64,000 nucleotides of DNA from Dictyostelium discoideum (taxonomy: Eukaryota), in the NCBI GenBank assembly GCA_000004695.1, contig CM000152.2, positions 1,792,001-1,856,000 on the forward strand. Reading direction: 5' to 3'. Below are positions 54 through 16,073 of the stretch, one piece after another. The notes beneath the pieces were generated by a model, which saw only the letters and a list, made by a program, of their open reading frames with translations, was not told the DNA's origin and did not search any database. Position 1 is the stretch's first letter. Every line of letters starts with the position of its first letter. A program made the translations under genes and the position numbers.

Positions 54-1012
54 ATTTTCTTCCTTAATTTCAAAAAAATCATCAAATTCACTTGGATCTT
101 CATCAAAATCTGATATTTTTTTATTTGATTTAGATTTATTTCTAGTATTAATCAAACTATTACTACCACCACCACCACTACTACTACTATTTTGTAGTTT
201 TGAAGGTTGTTTTTGTATAACTGGTGATGAAATTTCTAACTCTTCAAAACTATTAATATTATTATTATTATTATTATAATTAGTATTATTACCATTGAAA
301 TTTGTATTACTGTTTAAATTTGTCTTTTTTTGAATATTAGAATTACTATTATTATTATTATTAATATCATTATTATTATTATTATTATTATTGTTGTTGC
401 TGTTAATGTTGTTATTACCAATATTGGTTTGATTTTTTAAAGCTTGTGGTGTTGCTGGCAAAGGTTTTGATTTTGTACCACTATAATTATCAGCCACTGG
501 AATATTATTAGTATTCTTTTTAAATGAAATACCACCACCACTAGCACTATTGTTAATAATATTGTTATTATATAAAGAATTACTTCCATATGTTGGTTGA
601 ATATAACTATTATCACCATATGTATTATAGTTTATAGAGTTTTCATAGTCATCGGAATATAGATTCTTATTATTTTTACCATTACCTGAAGATATTGATG
701 TGGTAGTTGTTGTTGTTGTAGTTAGGAATGAAGTTGGTGAAATTGATGATGATGGTGGTGGTGGTGGTAGTAGTGGTGATTCTCTACTATTAATATTCTT
801 GTTATTGATATTATTATTTGTTTTTATTTTTTGTGTTGTTGTTGTTGTTGTTGTTGTTGTTGGATTGAATGATTGGTTAATATACTCTTCACTATCAATA
901 TTTGGATAATTTATTGGTTGTTGACTGATTTGTGACGATCTATTGCTTTTAGATTTAGATATAATTGGAACATACTCGTCATTGTCAATTTGGAAGTTAT
1001 TATTATTATTAA

Positions 1013-1880: not shown

Positions 1881-2405
1881 TAAATCATTTAAATGATAAA
1901 AAAAAATAATTAGAATTAATAAAAAATTTTTTAATCATTTAATAAAAAAAAAATAAAAAAAAAAAGAAGTTATTTCTGAAAACATTTGAAACATAAATCT
2001 ATAATATCGAGTTTTATTGCTTAATTGAAAAAAATCATTATTATTTATTTTTTTTTCTTTATTTTTTTATTTTAATTTTTTTTTTTTTTTATTTGTTTTA
2101 GGAAAAGAGAAAATAAAAATAAAAATAAAAATAAAAAAATAAAATGAAATAAAACAAAAAAAAAAAAAAAAAATTAAAAAAAAAATTTTTTTGTGATGGT
2201 GTTTCGTTTTTTAGAATATTTTTTTTTTTTTTAATTTTTTTTATTTTTTTTTATTTTTTAATTTTTATTTTTTTGATGATTTTGTCATATTACATTCACA
2301 CAAAAATAATAAAAACACAATTCCATAATTTGTAGATCATTAAACAAAAAAATCAAAAAAAAAAAATCAATAAAACTCATATATATACCACATTAATAAA
2401 ATAGA
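1455..2405. promoter_or_regulatory. Divergent intergenic/promoter region between the minus-strand gene ending at 1454 and the plus-strand gene starting at 2406. It is over 90% A+T with long A and T homopolymer runs.
   Basis: No ORFs. Homopolymer tracts are present, for example T40 at 1843..1882. Two ATG starts face outward at each end. Confidence 0.4.
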
Positions 2406-3711
<1,306 letters not shown>

Positions 3712-3742
3712 ATTGATTAAATTTAAATTAAATAAAAAGAAA

Positions 3743-3783
<41 letters not shown>

Positions 3784-4020
3784 ATACAAATTGATTTTAT
3801 TTATTTATTCATTTATTTATTTAAATTCAATTTCAAAAGTCTTTTCTTAAAAATTAAATTTAATTTTATTTTAGTAACATTATTCAATTTTTCAATCAAA
3901 TAATAAATAATTATTTAAATAAAAAAAATTATAAATAATAATTATGTAATTTTAAAAAATAAAAATAAAGGATATATATATATATATTTTTTTTTTTTTT
4001 AAAAATGTTTATTAATTTAT

Positions 4021-4873
4021 TTATTTATTACAAACATTTATATATTTTTCTGCAGACCCAGTACAGTCACCCCAAATATCGGTGTAAATCAAATCTTTAT
4101 AAACTAAGCAATTGAATTTATCAGATTGAGTAATTTCAAGCATTGTTGTATTACAATTTAATGAATATGAACTTGATAAACCATTAGCAAAACATTGATT
4201 TAATGGTGTGAATTTTATATAATCAAAATTTTGTTTCCAGCCATTGTTATTGCAATCACCATGGTATTGAATTTCAACATAGGTATCTTTTGGAATTTCA
4301 ATATCATCCATTTCAATAACTGTATACATATATGGACTTGATAAACAATCATTAACACATTCATATGGTTTAAACCATTGAATTATTCCTTCTCTATATT
4401 TTATTTGAAAAAAAGTTTAGGTTAATATAATTTTTTTTTTTTTTTTATTTTTTTTTTTTATTTTTTTTTATTTTAATTAAAATCAATTAATACTCTCCAC
4501 ATTGAGCAGCAGAAGTTTTTTTAATTGTTCCATTATCAAAGTCAATTGAATAGGTTTCTCCAGTTGAAACAATACATGTATCTAAACGAATATAAGTTTC
4601 TGTTACCAATTCACCATTATCACATAAACTTTCAAATGAACTTTCAGAACCTGGTAAAACACCACCACCATCAACACTTCCTAATCTTTTATTTTCTTCT
4701 AATAAACTAAAACTACCACTACCTGTCAAACTACCTTGTGAGTCACTACTGCTATGTGGTTTGTTGCACCCAACAACATCATATTGGAAAGTCTTTAGTG
4801 AAAGTAAACTTTCACTATAAACAATGTTTACAAATAAAAAAATTAATGCAATTAATGAAAATAATAATTTCAT
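4021..4873 (-). CDS. Secreted cysteine-containing hypothetical protein (about 250 aa) with an N-terminal signal peptide; 2 exons join(4021..4393,4494..4873).
   Basis: ATG at 4873 gives MKLLFSLIALIFLFVNIVYS (signal-peptide-like). The read-through ORF stops at 4487. A phase-2 splice GGAGA|gtattaatt (donor GT at 4493/4492) to aaatatag|A (acceptor AG at 4395/4394) joins the 128-aa and 102-aa ORFs in frame: ..AAQCGE-EGIIQWFKPYECVNDC... The intron is 100 nt and AT-rich. Total 753 nt = 251 codons. Confidence 0.45.
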
Positions 4874-4952
4874 TTTATTTTTTCAGATATATATATATTT
4901 TTTTTTAGAAAAATAATAATTAAAAAAAAAAAAAAAAAATTTTATTATTATT

Positions 4953-5008
<56 letters not shown>

Positions 5009-5149
5009 ATGATTAAAATATCTTTTGATTTTTCTTCACCTATAAATTTTTTTTTTTAACCACAAAAATTTTAAGAAAACGTTAACCAAACATCATAATT
5101 TATTGGGTTTTGGGAAAGTGACAAGAATTGTATAAAAATAAAATATCAA

Positions 5150-5410
5150 CTAAAATATTAAAATTAGAAAAGTCAACAGAAAATAAATATCTTTTAAATG
5201 ACGTAAGAAAATAAATTATACTAAAACTAAATAGAAAAAATAAAAAAATAAAAAATTGAGATAAAATTAAAATATTAAAATTGGAAATATCAATTGAAAA
5301 ATAAAAAAAAAAAAAAAAGAAAAAATCTCTTTAATATGACGTGCCAATATAAATTTTATTGAAAAAAAAAAAATATCTATTAGTTGACGTGCAAATATAA
5401 ATTTGGTTGA
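5150..5410. promoter_or_regulatory. Three spaced copies of a TGACGT(A/G)-containing ~25-bp motif embedded in about 100-bp degenerate tandem units. They lie 480-690 bp upstream of the Nse1-like gene.
   Basis: aaatgacgtaagaaaataaatta (about 5198), atatgacgtgccaatataaatttt (about 5334) and agttgacgtgcaaatataaatttgg (about 5383). Each is preceded by atattaaaatt[ag]gaaa...caa-type sequence. TGACGT is the CRE/bZIP half-site core. Confidence 0.3.
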
Positions 5411-5742
5411 AATAAAAAAAAAAAAAGGAAAAGGAAAAAATGATCGCAATAACTTTTTTTTTTTTTTTTTTTTTTGTAATAAAATTCATACTTACTTATT
5501 CGATTTTTTAAATATAATTTGTAATTTTTATTTTGAAGAGAGAAATGAGTGGGGAATAAAAGAAAGAATTGATTCAATTTTTTTTTTTTTTAAGTTTTTT
5601 AAAATTATTTTTATTTTAATATTTAATTGTTTTTTTTTAAAAAAAGATAAATGGTGGCAGAATAAAAAATCTATATTTTTATATAAATATATTCCCTTAT
5701 CATTGTTTTATTTTTTTTATTTTTTATTTTTATTTTTATTTT

Positions 5743-7286: not shown

Positions 7287-7456
7287 TATTCTGGTCAAAA
7301 TAGTAGGATGGTGTATATAGTAATCACCCTTAAAGATACTCAAAATAGAGAAATGAAATTTAAATTTCATGAAACTTTTTTAAATTTTCATTACAATATT
7401 AGGATTCGAAACTTTTTCTCTGGAATTATCTAAATCTTTTTTTATTTTATCGTCGG
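7287..7456 (-). mobile_element. Decayed relic related to the TRE5 B-module/ORF1 5' region, a pre-existing older layer at this tRNA locus; the homology is continuous with the adjacent 7457..7470 flank copy.
   Basis: 7421..7470 ctggaattatctaaatctttttttattttatcgtcggattggtgattaatc closely resembles TRE5-A ORF1 5' sequence ttttttctaaatctttttttattttatcgtctggttcgtgattgatg (7687..7733; the first 36 nt of this relic segment lie in this feature). The rest is a diverged, partly alignable continuation. Confidence 0.25.
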
Positions 7457-7470
7457 ATTGGTGATTAATC
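7457..7470. repeat. 14-bp direct repeat attggtgattaatc, copy 1 of 3. Putative target-site duplication at the 3' end of TRE5-A copy 1.
   Basis: Identical 14-mers at 7457..7470, 13334..13347 and 15950..15963. Each abuts an element end: C-module oligo(A) on one side, A-module 5' terminus on the other. Confidence 0.5.
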
Positions 7471-7582
7471 TTTTTTTTTTTTGAATTGGATAACGCAATT
7501 ATTATTTGCTTCTCCTTGAGATGCTAGATCTCATTTTATTTTATTTTTTTTTTTTTTTTTTACAGGGTCTCTAAAAGAGGGG

Positions 7583-7907
7583 TTAGTTTACTTTTTTTTT
7601 TTTTTTTTTTTTTTGTTTCGAATTTTGAATTGTATTATTACTTTTGATTAAAACATCTTTTTTGTCCAAACTTTTTTCTAAATCTTTTTTTATTTTATCG
7701 TCTGGTTCGTGATTGATGTTTATGACGTATTTGAATTGTTTTTTTTTTAATTGAGTTTTATCCACAATTTCGCTTATTTTTTGTAGGCATTTGTGTTGCT
7801 TAATATTTGTGGGGTTGTTTGTGATTTTCATTTTATTTTCTTTCTATTTTTTATATTTTTCTTTAAAAAGTTAAAAATCTGGAAATTTTCTGATTAACTT
7901 GGGTTCC

Positions 7908-7912
<5 letters not shown>
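7583..7912 (-). repeat. 3' B-module duplicate of copy 1, carrying the ORF1 start and the first ~63 ORF1 codons followed by oligo(A).
   Basis: ORF 7583..7831 MKITNNPTNIKQHKCLQK... is identical to the ORF1 N-terminus. It is preceded by cctgggaacccaagttaatcagaaaatttccag as at 12785..12830. Confidence 0.7.
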
Positions 7913-7974
<62 letters not shown>

Positions 7975-10900
7975 TTATTTATAGAAAGTACTGAGTGAAT
8001 TATTGTATTTTTTGAGATGTTTAGGAAGTTCTATTGCGTGAAGAGGTGAGTTCCATTGTCTGCTAAATTGTAATAGCTTTAGCGAGATTAGTGAGTCTAA
8101 TTTATTTTGTTCTTCTGGCCGTTGCTTTGATTTGATTCTTAATGTTTTGTTTATAACCGCTTGTGTCCTGTCCCATGCAGCTCTTTGTGTTTTAATTAGT
8201 TCACGTATGACTTGTTGTCTGTGAATTATTATTTCTTTTTCATCGTGAATGAGTTTATTTCTTTTGTGCCAGATTTTATCGAATATAATAGCTATTAAAT
8301 TGGCTACTAGTGCAATTTGTAGATGGTTTAAAATCTTCACATTCCAGGTGTGAGTGGTGTGTCCACACTTAGTTAGGGTGTAGTTGAAGATTTCTTGTGT
8401 GTTTTTGATGTGGGCTTTGCAGTTGAAGAATATATGTTCTGAGGTCTCATCTTCCCCACACTGTTGGCATGGCATGTTGTATATTTTTGGTAGTGCTTTC
8501 AGTGTGTATCTCCATAATAGATCTCTACCTTTCATGTTTATTATTTTTTTGATTTCTTTAAATGGAAGGTGTTTGCTATTAATTTTGGTCATTATTTCTT
8601 TTTGGCCAGGAGTTGGTATGAATTTGTTGTGTTCAGGAGATTGAGTTGTCATCATATCCTCGTATATTTTTTTTAATTTTGGGAGGTGTTCGTAGTGTGT
8701 TTGTTTATTTTGTGGAGTTTTTAATTGGGTCCATGCTTGCTTGCATTGCCAGTGTAGTTGTAGTTGATTTTGTTTTGTTGTTGTTTTGTTGTTGTTGTTG
8801 TTTTTGAGTTCCTCTTCCCACAGTTTTATATATGAACTAGGAGTGTTACTTACTCTTTGGTGGAGGTATCTTTCGAATAACCATGCTTTCTGTGCTAGTT
8901 CTCTTGTCTTCAGGTTCCATAAGTTTAGGCCACCATTGATATAGTTGTTTTGTCTTCTTTGTAGTGAAAGAGAGTTTTTAGATTTTGTGTTGAAAACGAA
9001 TTTTACGATGTTATTTTCAATACTATTGTGTTGTGGTGTGGTGTTGATGTAAGTGTGGAACGTTAACTGAGATAGTGCATATGTTTTTGCCATTATGAGT
9101 CTGCCCATATAGGTTGATGAAGTTGAGTTCCATGTTACTAGTTTAGCTCTGATGTTGTCTGAGATTGTATTGATTTTGGATTTGATACCCTTATTGTTGA
9201 AGTCAAAGCCGAGGTACCTTTCGTTTGATTTTATGACGGTGTATAGCGTTCTGGTGTTCCATTTGAAAGTGATACACGAGCATTTGGTTTGGTTTATTTT
9301 TGCGCTGGTTGCTTGGCAAAACTTCTTGATCCATTCATTCATGAGGAAATGGTCCATAAAGTTGTATGCTATTGTTGCTGTATCATCGGCGAACTGTAGT
9401 ATTTTAATGGTTTCTTTGGTTACACCATTGATGCAGCGGTCATTTATTATAGTAGTTGCCATGCATTCAACCACTAATGCGAAGATAGTGGGAGAGATAG
9501 GATCCCCTTGTTTGGTTCCTCTTTTTGATGTAAAGCTTTTAGATAATGAGTTATTGATGTACCCTGATGTTTCTGATTCATTGAGTAAGTTCATTATTGT
9601 GAGGACCATTTTGAGTGGTAGTTTTAGATGTGCAAGAGTACGTAGAATGGCGTTATGTGAGATTGAATCGAATGCTTTTTCAAAATCATAAAATGTTATG
9701 ATTGGTTCCATATCCTCTTTTGTGTTAATCTCTCGTTTTATTATTTCTATTGTTGAGTTTAAGGTGATGATGTTATCGTGCAGTAGTCTTCTTGGTACGA
9801 ATCCAGTTTGGAATGGTGAGATTATTTTGTTTAAGAACTTCAGGATCCTATTGTTGATTATTTTCGAATAGATTTTGTAATCGACATTTAGAAGTGTTAT
9901 TGGTCTATAGTTATCCAGGTTGTTTGGGTCTCCTTTGTTTTTATATATAGTAATCAATATCCCTTGTTTGAAGTCCTTTGGGATTGTTGTGTTCCAGAAG
10001 TGATTGTATAGTTTTGATATTATTGGTAGAATTTCATTAATGTGGTTTTTGTAAAATGTTGGAAGGAGTCCATCTTTACCAGGTGCTTTTCCTTCTTGTA
10101 TTTTTTCAATGCCTAGTCTGATTTCGTATTCTTCTATTGGTTGATTAATTTCGTCCAATATCTTTTGATCAATCCTTTTATTGAATGTTTTTAGGAGTTC
10201 GTGGTGAGTGTCTTCGTTGCATTCTCTCTTCTGGTACAGGTTCTCGTAATATCTTCTTGCTACTTCGAGGATATCCTCGTTTTTTGTTACCAAACAATTG
10301 TTGCTTGGATCTAGAATTTGAGGGATTTCATTTGTCTTTCTTTGGACTTTTCACCTTCTGGTTAAGTATTTTGATGGTGTTTCTTTGTTGTTGATGTGGG
10401 TGTTGGTTTGGTTTGCTTGTTTTATTCTTACTTGTTCCTTTAGAATATTGTTGATCTCTTCTTTAAGGAAGATTGCTCTTGAATCTTTGGCTGTTTCGAG
10501 TTTTTCTGCGAGTTCTTTTAGTTTGTTTTTGGTTTTATTGCTTTCTCTAATTTCTATATTAATTGACAGTTTCTTTATTTCATCTTTTAGTTTCAACCAT
10601 TGTTCGCAAATGTTTAATTTGTACCATTTGCTGGTGTTCTCTTCGAATTTTTTATTGTAGTATTTAATTGTTTTATTAATTTTGAGGCTGGTTGAATTCA
10701 TTTTGAGAGTTTCTAGGTTTTGTCTCCATAGTCTTTCTCCTTTCTTTTGTTGCTCGTATTCTGGTATTTTTAATTCAATGATTACCATGTTGTGATCAGA
10801 TTTTAATTTGATTTCCTTAGTAGTAACTATTGGGTTTAGATGGAGTATCTTCTTTGAGACAAAGACCCTATCGATGGTTGATTTGTTTCTTGGAAATGTG

Positions 10901-11196
10901 ATTCCATTCTTAATTTCTGTAAATTCGAATTCGTCGAAGATTGTTTTAATATATTTGTTAAGGTTATTATCCACTGAACAGTCTACATTGAAGTCTCCAG
11001 TTATAATATCGCTGTGTAGTATTTCTTCTGTGAGATTTTCCTTATACCATTCATGTCTTTCGTTTGACTTTGCTGGGGCATAAATGGTTGTGCATTTGAT
11101 CTGTGTTTTTGCAATCATCCATTCGGAAGATATAATTCTTTCGTTTATTGTTTTTGTTGTTGTTTTTATTTGGGTGTTGATGATGATTTGTGACAC
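7975..11196 (-). CDS. TRE5-A ORF2 (AP-endonuclease + reverse transcriptase + CCHC zinc knuckle), copy 1. It is a single reading frame interrupted by one in-frame TGA at 10351..10353, so this copy is probably inactive.
   Basis: ORFs 10351..11196 (EN: TGDFNVDCS) and 7975..10293 (RT: FADDTATIA; CQQCGEDETSEH) are in the same frame, since 11196-10293=903. The codons between them (KVQRKTNEIPQILDPSNNCL) contain no further stop. The M residues in the ORF track here are GTG/TTG, not ATG. The ORF2 frame is open upstream and overlaps the ORF1 end. Confidence 0.8.
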
Positions 11197-11408
11197 CCCT
11201 TGTCCTGTTTTATCAATTGGTGCGTGGTGTGTTATTTTGTTTTTATATTGTTGATTTATTGAGTAAATTTTATTTGTTTTTATATTTGTTTCAGTTAGAA
11301 GTGCTGCGTCCAGCTTGTTGTTGTCTAATACGGTGTTTATTATGCTGGCAGATTGGATGGTGTTGGATCCTTGGACGTTCCAAACACCTATTCTTATTGT
11401 GTTTTTCT

Positions 11409-12743
11409 TTATAGTTTTATTTGGGGTAGATTTTTATCTACCTTTTGAAGTTTCTGGTTTATTTTGTCTTCTAACTGATCTTTACTTTGTTCGTTGTGTT
11501 GTTGGTCTTGTGTGTTTGTGGGGTTTTTTGATTTACTGATTTGTTTTAGAATTTCCTTGTTGAAGTTGTCTATATCTTCATCCATTTTTGTTTTTATGCT
11601 TTTTTGTCCATATTCACCCAATTTTGGTTTGACTGGTGTTTTGTTGGTCCTGTTTGTTTTGTCTTGTTGTTTGTTTTTTGGTGTGTTTAACAATTTACTT
11701 GGTGAATCGATAATTTTCGATGGTGTACCATAGGTTGGGCTGAAACTCATGATATGTTTTATTGGAGAGGAGAAGAACCATTGATTTGAAGGGATTGAAA
11801 GTGGGAATTCTATTTTTCTTATTGCATCAGTGTTTGGGCTGGTGAAGTCGAAGATATCATTTACCTCTCTAAGTTTTTCTTCCGTTGTTAGTCTCTTTGT
11901 TTCGCCGTGTTGTTTTATTGGTGTATTGTATGGAGATGGTGGTTCAATAGGTTTTTCTGATTTTGTTTTAATTTCTTGATTGTTTATCGATTGGGTATTG
12001 ATCTCATTCTCTATTCTTGTTAGTTCATCTACGTTTTCTAGTGATGCATCTATTACCTTTTGAGCTGTATCATCTAGGGCCATAAATGTTTTATCATTAG
12101 ATGAGGAGGTGATTGGTGGGATAATGATTGTTCTTTTTCCTTGTTTTGGTATTTGTTCTGATGTAGATTGTGGTTGTTGTTCATCTGATTGTTTTTTATT
12201 TTTGTTTTCTTCTTGATTTTCTGGTAATGAGGTTTGATCTCTCCATCCTTTGTTGGAGTGACCAATTAATGTTAGATTGTCTAGTTCAATGATAGTGTCA
12301 TATTCTTCTACGACTCTTTTCACTGTTTTGATAATTAGAGTTTCGCCTTTAATTTCAGATTTAATTAGTTTACATCCTTCATTTTCTATTACCCATTCTA
12401 TTTCTGTGAGTGATTTATACCAATCGAAATCCGTATACATATTTTTTGGTCTTAGAGTGGTTATAAATTGTCCTTTTAATTCTGCATCGAACATATTTAC
12501 AAAATAGATTACTGTACTAATACTGTCTGTGAGAATTTTGAATGTATTATTACTTTTGATTAAAACATCTTTTTTGTCCAAACTTTTTTCTAAATCTTTT
12601 TTTATTTTATCGTCTGGTTCGTGATTGATGTTTATGACGTATTTGAATTGTTTTTTTTTTAATTGAGTTTTATCCACAATTTCGCTTATTTTTTGTAGGC
12701 ATTTGTGTTGCTTAATATTTGTGGTGTTGTTTGTGATTTTCAT
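11409..12743 (-). CDS. TRE5-A ORF1 protein (444 aa), copy 1.
   Basis: Complete ORF MKITNNTTNIKQHKCLQK... Its first ~63 codons are duplicated in the 3' B-module copies at 7583..7831 and 13445..13648. It is about 98% identical to the copy-2 ORF1. Confidence 0.8.
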   Translation of the reverse strand: MKITNNTTNIKQHKCLQKISEIVDKTQLKKKQFKYVININHEPDDKIKKDLEKSLDKKDVLIKSNNTFKILTDSISTVIYFVNMFDAELKGQFITTLRPKNMYTDFDWYKSLTEIEWVIENEGCKLIKSEIKGETLIIKTVKRVVEEYDTIIELDNLTLIGHSNKGWRDQTSLPENQEENKNKKQSDEQQPQSTSEQIPKQGKRTIIIPPITSSSNDKTFMALDDTAQKVIDASLENVDELTRIENEINTQSINNQEIKTKSEKPIEPPSPYNTPIKQHGETKRLTTEEKLREVNDIFDFTSPNTDAIRKIEFPLSIPSNQWFFSSPIKHIMSFSPTYGTPSKIIDSPSKLLNTPKNKQQDKTNRTNKTPVKPKLGEYGQKSIKTKMDEDIDNFNKEILKQISKSKNPTNTQDQQHNEQSKDQLEDKINQKLQKVDKNLPQIKL

Positions 12744-12819
12744 TTTATTTTCTTTCTATCTTTTATATTTTTCTTTAAAAAGTTAAAAATCTGGAAATTT
12801 TCTGATTAACTTGGGTTCC

Positions 12820-12864
<45 letters not shown>

Positions 12865-12865
<1 letters not shown>

Positions 12866-13333
12866 TCTTTTTTATATGAAAAATGAAATAATCAAAAAAA
12901 GAGATTGTTGTTGTTGTTTGTTTTTTTTCGATCTGATTATTTTTTGCTTTTTTTTGAAAATTTTGCTACGCAAAATTCTCAAAACGAAACAAATAATAAA
13001 TTACAATAAAGTAAAAAGATGGCTTTTTAAGATAGTTTATTTATTTATTTATTTGTTTTTTAAGTCTTTTTTATATGAAAAATGAAATAATCAAAAAAAG
13101 AGATTGTTGTTGTTGTTTGTTTTTTTTCGATCTGATTATTTTTTGCTTTTTTTTGAAAATTTTGCTACGCAAAATTCTCAAAACGAAACAAATAATAAAT
13201 TACAATAAAGTAAAAAGATGGCTTTTTAAGATAGTTTATTTATTTATTTATTTGTTTTTTAAGTCTTTTTTATATGAAAAATGAAATAATCAAAAAAAGA
13301 GATTGTTGTTGTTGTTTGTTTTTTTTCGATCTC
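12865..13333 (-). repeat. TRE5-A A-module tandem array, about 2.4 units of ~199 bp (copy 1 5' end).
   Basis: Units start at 12865, 13064 and 13262 with aagtcttttttatatgaaaaatgaaataatc. The same unit repeats at 15501..15949. Confidence 0.8.
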
Positions 13334-13347
13334 ATTGGTGATTAATC
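13334..13347. repeat. 14-bp direct repeat attggtgattaatc, copy 2 of 3, at the junction between the copy-1 5' end and the copy-2 3' oligo(A).
   Basis: See 7457..7470. Confidence 0.5.
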
Positions 13348-13689
13348 TTTTTTTTTTTTTTTTTTTTTTTTTTTGAATTGGATAACGCAATTATTATTTG
13401 CTTCTCCTTGAGATGCTAGATCTCATTTTATTTTTTTTTTTTTTTTACAGGGTCTTTTTGATTAAAACATCTTTTTTGTCCAAACTTTTTTCTAAATCTT
13501 TTTTTATTTTATCGTCTGGTTCGTGATTGATGTTTATGACGTATTTGAATTGTTTTTTTTTTTTTAATTGAGTTTTATCCACAATTTCGCTTATTTTTTG
13601 TAGGCATTTGTGTTGCTTAATATTTGTGGTGTTGTTTGTGATTTTCATTTTATTTTCTTTCTATCTTTTTTATTTTTCTGATTAACTTG

Positions 13690-13748
<59 letters not shown>

Positions 13749-13750
<2 letters not shown>

Positions 13751-13836
13751 TTATAGAAAGTACTGAGTGAATTATTGTATTTTTTGAGATGTTTAGGAAG
13801 TTCTATTGCGGGTGTTGATGATGATTTGTGACACCC
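13749..13836 (-). pseudogene. ORF2 remnant of copy 2. The last ~20 codons of ORF2 are fused to its first ~8 codons, with the deletion junction at 13810/13811; about 3.1 kb is missing relative to copy 1.
   Basis: 13741..13810 matches 7975..8043 of copy 1 (..ttaggaagttctattgcg). 13811 onwards (ggtgttgatgatgatttgtgacacc) matches 11173 onwards of copy 1. Confidence 0.7.
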
Positions 13837-14046
13837 CTTGTCCTGTTTTATCAATTGGTGCGTGGTGTGTTATTTTGTTTTTATATTGTTGATTTATTGA
13901 GTAAATTTTATTTGTTTTTATATTTGTTTCAGTTAGAAGTGCTGCGTCCAGCTTGTTGTTGTCTAAAACGGTGTTTATTATGCTGGCAGATTGGATGGTG
14001 TTGGATCCTTGGACGTTCCAAACACCTATTCTTATTGTGTTTTTCT

Positions 14047-15381
14047 TTATAGTTTTATTTGGGGTAGATTTTTATCTACCTTTTGAAGTTTCTGGTTTAT
14101 TTTGTCTTCTAACTGATCTTTACTTTGTTCGTTGTGTTGTTGGTCTTGTGTGTTTGTGGGGTTTTTTGATTTATTGATTTGTTTTAGAATTTCCTTGTTG
14201 AAGTTGTCTATATCTTCATCCATTTTTGTTTTTATGCTTTTTTGTCCATATTCACCCAATTTTGGTTTGACTGGTGTTTTGTTGGTCTTGTTTGTTTTGT
14301 CTTGTTGTTTCTTTTTTGGTGTGTTTAACAATTTACTTGGTGAATCGATAATTTTCGATGGTGTACCATAAGTTGGGCTGAAACTCATGATATGTTTTAT
14401 TGGAGAGGAGAAGAACCATTGATTTGAAGGGATTGAAAGTGGGAATTCTATTTTTCTTATTGCATCAGTGTTTGGGCTGGTGAAGTCGAAGATATCATTT
14501 GCCTCTCTAAGTTTTTCTTCCGTTGTTAGTCCCTTTGTTTCGCCGTGTTGTTTTATTGGTGTATTGTATGGAGATGGTGGTTCAATAGGTTTTTCTGATT
14601 TTGTTTTAATTTCTTGATTGTTTATCGATTGTGTATTGATCTCATTCTCTATTCTTGTTAGTTCATCTACGTTTTCTAGTGATGCTTCTATTACCTTTTG
14701 AGCTGTATCATCTAGGGCCATAAATGTTTTATCATTAGATGAGGATGTGATTGGTGGGATAATGATTGTTCTTTTTCCTTGTTTTGGTATTTGTTCTGAT
14801 GTAGATTGTGGTTGTTGTTCATCTGATTGTTTTTTATTTTTGTTTTCTTCTTGATTTTCTGGTAATGAGGTTTGATCTCTCCATCCTTTGTTGGAGTGTC
14901 CAATTAATGTTAGATTGTCTAGTTCAATGATAGTGTCAAATTCTTCTACGACTCTTTTCACTGTTTTGATAATTAGAGTTTCGCCTTTAATTTCTGATTT
15001 AATTAGTTTACATCCTTCATTTTCTATTACCCATTCTATTTCTGTGAGTGATTTATACCAATCAAAATCTGTATACATATTTTTTGGTCTTATAGTGGTT
15101 ATAAATTGTCCTTTTAATTCTGCATCAAACATATTTACAAAATAGATTACTGTACTAATACTGTCTGTGAGAATTTTGAATGTATTATTACTTTTGATTA
15201 AAACATCTTTTTTGTCCAAACTTTTTTCTAAATCTTTTTTTATTTTATCGTCTGGTTCGTGATTGATGTTTATGACGTATTTGAATTGTTTTTTTTTTAA
15301 TTGAGTTTTATCCACAATTTCGCTTATTTTTTGTAGGCATTTGTGTTGCTTAATATTTGTGGTGTTGTTTGTGATTTTCAT
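14047..15381 (-). CDS. TRE5-A ORF1 protein (444 aa), copy 2.
   Basis: Complete ORF differing from copy 1 at only a few residues (e.g. TTIRPKN vs TTLRPKN, EEFDTII vs EEYDTII, ETKGLT vs ETKRLT). Confidence 0.8.
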   Translation of the reverse strand: MKITNNTTNIKQHKCLQKISEIVDKTQLKKKQFKYVININHEPDDKIKKDLEKSLDKKDVLIKSNNTFKILTDSISTVIYFVNMFDAELKGQFITTIRPKNMYTDFDWYKSLTEIEWVIENEGCKLIKSEIKGETLIIKTVKRVVEEFDTIIELDNLTLIGHSNKGWRDQTSLPENQEENKNKKQSDEQQPQSTSEQIPKQGKRTIIIPPITSSSNDKTFMALDDTAQKVIEASLENVDELTRIENEINTQSINNQEIKTKSEKPIEPPSPYNTPIKQHGETKGLTTEEKLREANDIFDFTSPNTDAIRKIEFPLSIPSNQWFFSSPIKHIMSFSPTYGTPSKIIDSPSKLLNTPKKKQQDKTNKTNKTPVKPKLGEYGQKSIKTKMDEDIDNFNKEILKQINKSKNPTNTQDQQHNEQSKDQLEDKINQKLQKVDKNLPQIKL

Positions 15382-15457
15382 TTTATTTTCTTTCTATTTT
15401 TTTTATTTTTCTTTAAAAAGTTAAAAATCTGGAAATTTTCTAATTAACTTGGGTTCC

Positions 15458-15500
<43 letters not shown>

Positions 15501-15503
<3 letters not shown>

Positions 15504-15949
15504 TCTTTTTTATATGAAAAATGAAATAATCAAAAAAAGAGATTGTTGTTGTTGTTTGTTTTTTTCGATCTGATTATTTTTTGCTTTTTTTTTGAAAATT
15601 TTGCTACGCAAAATTCTCAAAACGAAACAAATAATAAATTACAATAAAGTAAAAAGATGGCTTTTTAAAATAGTTTATTTATTTATTTATTTGTTTTTTA
15701 AGTCTTTTTTATATGAAAAATGAAATAATCAAAAAAAGAGATTGTTGTTGTTGTTTGTTTTTTTCGATCTGATTATTTTTTGCTTTTTTTTTGAAAATTT
15801 TGCTACGCAAAATTCTCAAAACGAAACAAATAATAAATTACAATAAAGTAAAAAGATGGCTTTTTAAAATAGTTTATTTATTTATTTATTTGTTTTTTAA
15901 GTCTTTTTTATATGAAAAATGAAATAATCAAAAAAAGAGATTGTTGTTG
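15501..15949 (-). repeat. TRE5-A A-module tandem array, about 2.3 units (copy 2 5' end). The terminal unit is truncated about 20 bp earlier than in copy 1.
   Basis: Units start at 15501, about 15700 and about 15899. The array ends ...gagattgttgttg at 15949, immediately before the 14-bp repeat. Confidence 0.8.
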
Positions 15950-15963
15950 ATTGGTGATTAATC
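15950..15963. repeat. 14-bp direct repeat attggtgattaatc, copy 3 of 3, between the copy-2 5' end and the tRNA-Val upstream flank.
   Basis: See 7457..7470. It is followed by 32 bp of flank and then the tRNA at 15996. Confidence 0.5.
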
Positions 15964-15995
15964 TTAATGACATTCATAACAAAAAAATCATGTTT

Positions 15996-16069
15996 GGTTT
16001 GATGGTGTAGTTGGTTATCACGGTTGCTTTACACGCAACAGGTCTCGAGTTCGATCCTCGGTCGGATCA
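15996..16069 (+). tRNA. tRNA-Val, anticodon TAC (UAC), 74 nt.
   Basis: Hand-folded cloverleaf. Acceptor GGTTTGA/TCGGATC (3 G-U pairs). T8. D-arm GTGT-AGTTGGTTA-TCAC with G18G19. Anticodon stem GTTGC/GCAAC with loop TTTACAC (U33, anticodon TAC, A37). Variable loop AGGTC. T-arm TCGAG-TTCGATC-CTCGG. Discriminator A. It is followed by T5 (16074..16078), a Pol III terminator. It is strongly similar to eukaryotic tRNA-Val. Confidence 0.8.
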
Positions 16070-16073
16070 TATA

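Follow-up and report, generated by a model that had tools for sequence, protein, structure and literature searches.

Three copies of a 14-bp target sequence at a tandem of TRE5-A retrotransposons upstream of a Dictyostelium tRNA-Val(UAC) gene

Upstream of a tRNA-Val(UAC) gene in a 64,000-nucleotide stretch of Dictyostelium discoideum DNA (contig CM000152.2 of GCA_000004695.1; hereafter the window), two retrotransposons of the TRE5-A type are flanked and separated by three copies of a single 14-nt sequence. Read along the plus strand, the locus consists of a target-site duplication (TSD), TRE5-A.1 (element 1), the second TSD copy, TRE5-A.2 (element 2), the third TSD copy, 32 nt of DNA and the tRNA gene (Table 1). 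The elements are arranged head-to-tail, both on the minus strand with their A-module arrays toward the tRNA; this orientation, and the intervals 7471..13333 and 13348..15949, had been proposed in the original prediction and were confirmed here. ARAGORN reported a single tRNA in the window, tRNA-Val(UAC), placed at 15995..16070, and in an Rfam search of a 351-nt stretch it spans 15996..16069 and scores 54.3 bits (threshold 29). The conserved U8, A14 and G18G19 are consistent with +1 at 15996, a G. Counted from there, the 5′ end of element 2 (15949, minus strand) lies 46 nt away (15950..15995) from the plus-strand tRNA, the same distance as first proposed.

The 14-mer ATTGGTGATTAATC occurs on the plus strand at 7457, 13334 and 15950, exactly three times and nowhere else in the window, and exact matches numbered zero across 100 dinucleotide-preserving shuffles, with none expected by chance. 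Reading of the junction sequences placed all three copies directly against ends of TRE5-A elements, as had been claimed. The distal copy is followed immediately by T12 and then by the C-module end GAATTGGATAACGC (motif GAATTGGATAACGCAATTATTATTTGC). At the middle copy, the 5′ end of element 1 (...GTTTTTTTTCGATCTC) lies on the left, and T27 with an identical C-module end lies on the right. At the proximal copy, the 5′ end of element 2 (...GAGATTGTTGTTG) adjoins on the left, and unique DNA leads from the right edge to the tRNA gene. Because the first two T of the tails could belong to the shared string, which would then comprise 16 nt (ATTGGTGATTAATCTT), the TSD measures 14-16 bp.

Table 1. Features of the tandem locus (window positions) and target duplications at seven comparison loci. 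ORF, open reading frame; TPRT, target-primed reverse transcription.
Feature	Position	Strand	Remarks
TSD copy 1 (distal), ATTGGTGATTAATC	7457..7470	.	adjoins the element 1 poly(A) tail
Element 1, TRE5-A.1, structurally full-length, 5,863 bp	7471..13333	-	poly(A) is T12 on the plus strand (7471..7482)
Element 1 ORF2 (endonuclease and reverse transcriptase)	7975..11412	-	one in-frame TGA; Pfam RVT_1
Element 1 ORF1, 444 aa, intact	11409..12743	-	nearly identical to element 2 ORF1
Element 1 A-module array, 199-bp unit, ~2.5 copies	12837..13333	-	nothing 5′ of the array in element orientation
TSD copy 2 (middle)	13334..13347	.	separates element 1 (5′ end) from element 2 (poly(A) tail)
Element 2, TRE5-A.2, non-autonomous, 2,602 bp	13348..15949	-	poly(A) is T27 on the plus strand (13348..13374)
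Element 2 ORF1, 444 aa, intact	14047..15381	-	identical protein encoded at 9 or more loci in a second assembly
Element 2 A-module array, 199-bp unit, ~2.4 copies	15475..15949	-	
TSD copy 3 (proximal)	15950..15963	.	adjoins 5′ end of element 2
32-nt spacer, proximal TSD copy to tRNA +1	15964..15995	.	putative first-strand nick at left edge (from TPRT mechanism)
tRNA-Val(UAC) gene, targeting landmark	15996..16069	+	ARAGORN, Rfam; probably ValUAC-2 of AX4 chromosome 3
L001 target duplication, TTTTATTTATTAT			
L003 target duplication, GTTTTGTAATTAAA			
L004 target duplication, GGTGTCATTGAA			
L005 target duplication, TGGTTTCGTACATTC			
L006 target duplication, GTACGTTATTATCTA			
L007 target duplication, TATATATAATTTT			
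L008 target duplication, CTTCTGTGAAAT			

On sequence grounds, both elements can be assigned to the TRE5-A (DRE) family of D. discoideum non-LTR (long terminal repeat) retrotransposons. The expected non-LTR features are present, namely two ORFs and a reverse transcriptase (in element 1), the absence of LTRs, and poly(A) tails of 12 (element 1) and 27 (element 2). In line with the family's layout of A- and B-modules 5′ and B- and C-modules 3′, the untranslated regions are modular, with a 5′ array of 199-bp A-modules and a repeat of the region upstream of ORF1 near the 3′ end, these modules being assigned independently of published reference boundaries. The ORF1 product of element 2 is 99% identical to D. 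discoideum AX4 proteins. Of two published primers for endogenous TRE5-A, Rep-109Q matches ORF1 of both elements at 29/29 positions, and Rep-190 matches element 1 at 20/20 and element 2 at 19/20. TRE5-A is known to integrate about 47±3 bp upstream of a tRNA gene, its 5′ end facing the tRNA and in opposite transcriptional orientation (PMC5391098), and comprises autonomous TRE5-A.1 and non-autonomous, ORF2-less TRE5-A.2 (PMC5391098, PMC5911963). Size, modules, orientation and tRNA distance of the two elements fit the descriptions of these subfamilies in the same two papers.

Element 1 had been described as full-length, which holds for its structure; in the window, its ORF2 is interrupted by one in-frame TGA at 10351..10353 (position 10352), with the same frame continuing on both sides of the stop. 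The ORF2 translation matches Pfam RVT_1 with E=5.8e-33 and more weakly Exo_endo_phos, at 18.9 bits and thus below the 24.5 cut-off. Its upper coordinate, 11412, is the point, shortly 5′ of the ORF1 stop and in frame with ORF2, from which the conceptual translation was run, rather than a mapped start. In a second assembly of the same locus (L002 of GCA_054883475.1) the stop codon reads TTA (position 15010). This discrepancy is either a strain difference inactivating the window copy or an error in one of the assemblies.

Element 2 is a TRE5-A.2 copy: at ~2.6 kb it retains ORF1 and the C-module and has lost ORF2 by the deletion common to that subfamily. The deletion junction lies between 13810 and 13811 (element-1 positions 2162 and 5296), and the missing sequence corresponds to element-1 positions 2162..5295 (window 8039..11172), nearly all of ORF2. 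This deletion of 3,134 bp and the measured length of 2,602 bp bear out the earlier description of a 2.6-kb, ORF2-deleted second copy. The two elements align over the first 2.1 kb, with 22 mismatches, and over the last 0.45 kb, and the 5′ end of element 2 is 22 nt shorter, starting later in the A-module. Element 2 also lacks 71 bp matching window 7571..7641, a part of the element 1 3′ untranslated region that includes a T26 run on the plus strand; this lack would be, after the ORF2 deletion, a second structural feature that sets the subfamilies apart. Judging by 3′-end spacing, the 7571..7641 stretch is also missing from other TRE5-A.2 copies.

Comparison loci were obtained by exact look-up of the element 2 ORF1 protein, which returned nine loci (L001-L009) in GCA_054883475.1, eight of them other sites and one, L002, the same site; each was compared as a 21-kb stretch bearing TRE5-A. 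Exact-protein look-ups with element 1 ORF1 and with the AX4 proteins P0001 and P0002 gave no match and yielded no further TRE5-A.1 loci. The 14-mer is absent from all eight other TRE5-A loci on either strand, and the copies there have their own unrelated duplications of 12-15 bp (Table 1). The 14-mer is therefore not an integral terminal sequence of TRE5-A, a possibility that the original prediction had named as one that would refute it. At the seven other loci with a tRNA, the 5′ junction lies 45-50 nt and the proximal TSD edge about 30-35 nt from the tRNA, with spacers and junction distances counted by hand from printed junctions.

The same loci speak to the ancestry of the two elements. The deletion junction at element-1 position 2162 is common to 9/9 loci (the eight dispersed TRE5-A.2 copies and L002), which identifies the deletion in element 2 as the one shared across the TRE5-A.2 family. 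Within the shared 1.64-kb unique region the elements differ at 20 sites, of which 18 separate the subfamilies: there, element 2 agrees with all eight dispersed TRE5-A.2 copies and element 1 with another TRE5-A.1 (at L003). Overall, the two elements derive from different source lineages, each with its own complete pair of junctions. They are not a single rearranged element, an option that the original prediction had left to breakpoint analysis, given their separate tails (12 vs 27), separate 5′ ends, the TRE5-A.2 junction and the 18/20 diagnostic sites. Local duplication of a single insertion, by unequal exchange or slippage between the flanking TSDs with later loss of ORF2 from one copy, would likewise yield the order TSD-element-TSD-element-TSD, and the ~2.5 A-modules in both copies are in keeping with such an event. 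It is nonetheless very unlikely, because the deletion junction of element 2 recurs in eight dispersed copies, the differences are overwhelmingly subfamily-diagnostic, the tails are of unequal length, the 5′ ends lie 22 nt apart, and 14 bp is very little homology for recombination.

A misjoining of repeat copies from different places is a natural concern in a repeat-rich region. In the L002 assembly both elements recur in unchanged order, again with ATTGGTGATTAATC three times, and its flanks are 100% (left, over 1 kb) and 99.1% (right) identical to those of the window. Between window and L002 there are 11 substitutions and some differences in homopolymer length, one of the substitutions being the change of the ORF2 stop to TTA. 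That the elements differ at these positions next to a left flank of complete identity suggests imperfect repeat sequence in at least one assembly. However, an assembly artefact as the source of the tandem is barely credible, since an assembly of different accession has the same order, junctions and three 14-mers, and since the junction sequences are unique to the window locus.

Two independent events of target-primed reverse transcription (TPRT) at the same position upstream of one tRNA-Val(UAC) gene very probably produced this arrangement. In the first event, a full-length TRE5-A.1 would have integrated from a plus-strand nick ~32 nt upstream of the tRNA +1, with cDNA synthesis on the poly(A) tail primed from that nick. 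The other strand would have received the second nick, 14-16 nt further upstream at -46, and repair would have duplicated the 14-mer on both sides of TRE5-A.1. The targeting complex would measure from the tRNA gene bound by TFIIIB/TFIIIC, a role of TFIIIB that we take from the literature. Because the first insertion leaves the 46 nt adjoining the tRNA as they were, the complex would cut the same bonds again. In the second event, a TRE5-A.2 RNA, mobilized in trans by the ORF2 protein of an autonomous copy, would have been inserted at the same two phosphodiester bonds, duplicating the tRNA-proximal TSD copy and moving the older element 2.6 kb away without disrupting it. The new element would thus be placed between the tRNA and the old one, making the 2.6-kb copy the younger. 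The original prediction had read the locus as two insertions measured from the tRNA, the second of which re-duplicated the TSD of the first; the middle TSD copy and the independence of the elements support this reading, and from position specificity we infer that TRE5-A.1 came first.

The middle TSD copy also bears on a single-event origin. Non-LTR reverse transcriptases are known to jump between templates, and an enzyme that, on reaching the 5′ end of one RNA, switched to the poly(A) tail of another could in principle deposit two elements in one TPRT event. Such a jump would join the elements directly, leaving no possibility of a third 14-mer between them, and we regard this origin as vanishingly improbable.

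The two integrations might also have occurred in reverse order, the 2.6-kb copy taking the -46 site and the 5.9-kb copy subsequently entering at the distal TSD copy, and sequence divergence is unable to order the copies. The distal site, however, would then have lain 2.6 kb from the tRNA, as against a published TRE5-A integration window of 23-181 bp upstream of tRNA genes (PMC5391098). Furthermore, exact reuse of the 14 nt away from a nearby tRNA ruler would be an unexplained coincidence, making this order highly improbable.

Several points weigh against serial integration from -46 as set out above. No allele with zero or one element was recovered, L002, from the only other assembly with this arrangement, carrying both, and the state with a single copy of the 14-mer is therefore a reconstruction. 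Two divergent Dictyostelium genomes (L011, GCA_054859385.1; L012, GCA_054859235.1) have the orthologous interval, between an Nse1-like gene and a 976-aa gene, without TRE5-A or the 14-mer. Their intergenic DNA is not alignable, with only the tRNA aligning convincingly, and as that tRNA is on the opposite strand and its flanks do not align, the comparison says nothing on the ancestral target. Relative age is not resolvable, all copies having 0-4 private substitutions in 1.64 kb. Finally, published TSDs range over 10-16 bp, so that identical nicks are not guaranteed and their recurrence here reflects either site preference or luck.

Re-duplicated TSDs after successive poly(A) tails were found at five of the eight other loci (L003, L005, L006, L007 and L008). 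The most extensive example, at L003 (3759..13170), comprises four TRE5-A stacked at a tRNA-Thr(CGU) gene with GTTTTGTAATTAAA present five times, including one-base variants. From the tRNA outward, the stack contains a full-length TRE5-A.1, a TRE5-A.2 and two strongly 5′-truncated copies. It resembles the window in mechanism and signature, with GTTTTGTAATTAAA after each of four poly(A) tails and next to the tRNA. It differs in recording four serial events, in having a full-length TRE5-A.1 as the proximal (youngest) copy, and in the truncation of its two outer copies. L007 and L008 have three target copies each, and L006 presents a more decayed stack. At L005 (11995..12050), the TRE5-A.2 tail is followed by the target TGGTTTCGTACAT(TC), a run of 21 A and the target again; this arrangement resembles an insertion of which truncation left nothing but the poly(A) tail.

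These observations agree with what is known of TRE integration. According to work of the Winckler laboratory, tRNA genes that were targeted before typically come to carry TRE-TRE tandems, in which the elements do not insert into one another (PMC5391098), and new TRE integrations were reported at 91/98 occupied tRNA genes (Spaller et al. 2017, PMC5391098). A close published parallel is a TRE5-A(bsr)-TRE5-A.1 tandem that was generated by experiment 46 bp upstream of LysCUU-2 (PMC5391098). Like the window, it has a new TRE5-A ~46 bp upstream, inserted on the tRNA side of the old copy, with matching orientation and with the old copy intact. Unlike the window, this and the other tandems of that study involve an experimentally marked element and were sequenced at the tRNA-side junction only, whereas both window elements are natural and all three TSDs can be read. 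Similarly, a nanopore read revealed a new copy on the tRNA-like-motif side of an existing TRE5-A.2, with TSDs of 10-16 bp (PMC9012585). It shares with the window a complete new copy stacked with its 10-16 bp TSD on an older TRE5-A.2, but the target was an A/B-box motif in a fragment of the DNA transposon DDT-B and the new copy was the marked TRE5-A(bsr). Yeast Ty3 (and Ty1) elements resemble TRE5-A in upstream targeting of RNA polymerase III-transcribed tRNA genes via TFIIIB/TFIIIC (PMC5911963). In contrast to TRE5-A, they use an integrase, carry LTRs and generate 5-bp duplications, without TPRT or a poly(A) tail.

The triplicated TSD follows directly from published TRE behavior, and a tandem with a re-duplicated TSD is the rule rather than the exception for TRE5-A; the phenomenon is already known. 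The window offers a clean natural case of repeated position-specific non-LTR integration at an RNA polymerase III gene in which all junctions are readable. It illustrates that a tRNA gene remains a target after being hit and that new copies displace old ones instead of destroying them. By such displacement, TRE5-A can amplify without damage to a gene-dense haploid genome. The value of the locus is illustrative, and a census of nick-site precision could start from it.

On balance we stop just short of favoring a stronger proposal, that the stacks may be exact stratigraphic records with the youngest copy next to the tRNA and both nicks reused within ~1 nt. After the first insertion, an A-module replaces the original flank beyond the second nick, so that a repeated cut at the same bond would imply that distance, and not local sequence, sets second-strand cleavage. 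If the proposal is true, this distance would be taken from the first nick or from TFIIIB, and a genome-wide reading of stacks could order TRE5-A.1 and TRE5-A.2 activity through time. Even so, the stratigraphic reading would be a modest refinement of known biology and no new kind of system.

Some further features concern the tRNA gene. A search of the whole 64-kb window with Rfam gathering thresholds returned no match, the tRNA included; this miss is an effect of the speed filters in a very AT-rich window and no evidence against the tRNA. Table S2 of PMC5391098 lists ValUAC-2 on chromosome 3 at 1,807,996..1,808,069, with 33, 1,923 and 28 reads mapped for de novo integrations. In GCA_054883475.1, the tRNA genes of L001, L003 and L004 are on the same chromosome as L002. 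Each of the three is offset by ~80 kb from AX4 chromosome 3 HisGUG-6, ThrCGU-1 and SerGCU-7 to -9, and the L002 tRNA is offset by ~86 kb from AX4 ValUAC-2; from these offsets, the window tRNA is probably ValUAC-2 of AX4. The divergent genomes encode a tRNA-Val(UAC) between the same neighboring genes (L011, 8108..8181; L012, 9391..9466) on the strand opposite to that of the window, with the acceptor stem GGTCGGA (G5-G68 mismatch) in place of GGTTTGA. In the left flank of the tandem, 7392..7404 holds AGGATTCGAAAC, which loosely resembles a tRNA B-box (GGTTCGANTCC); in the empty site as reconstructed, it would sit ~100 nt upstream of the tRNA. This resemblance may be due to chance.

Additional observations relate to the termini and modules of the elements. 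The 5′ end of element 1 is the canonical GAGATCGAAAA... (GAGATCG), with an additional G as compared with the internal repeat, CAGATCG. Several independent full-length copies likewise begin GAGATCG, and complete TRE5-A integrations are known to carry the extra 5′ G (PMC3159450). Microhomology at the element 1 5′ junction (AAT before the extra G, as in the internal repeat) was considered and set aside as probably a chance match, no such match being present in other full-length copies. An internal A39 run (12824..12862) follows the A-module array of element 1. The 3′ region of this element repeats the stretch just upstream of ORF1 together with the first ORF1 codons, giving ORF fragments that begin MKITNN..., and element 2 positions 109..332 match element 1 positions 5084..5304 at 98%. 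The number of A-modules in TRE5-A.2 copies is ~1.5 at L005 and L009, 2.5 in the window, ~7-8 at L001 and L007, and ~20 at L006, with arrays seen at 5627..9900 of L006, 8225..9900 of L001 and 8214..9900 of L007. As the ORF1 proteins are identical among TRE5-A.2 copies, the promoter-module array would appear to expand or contract quickly.

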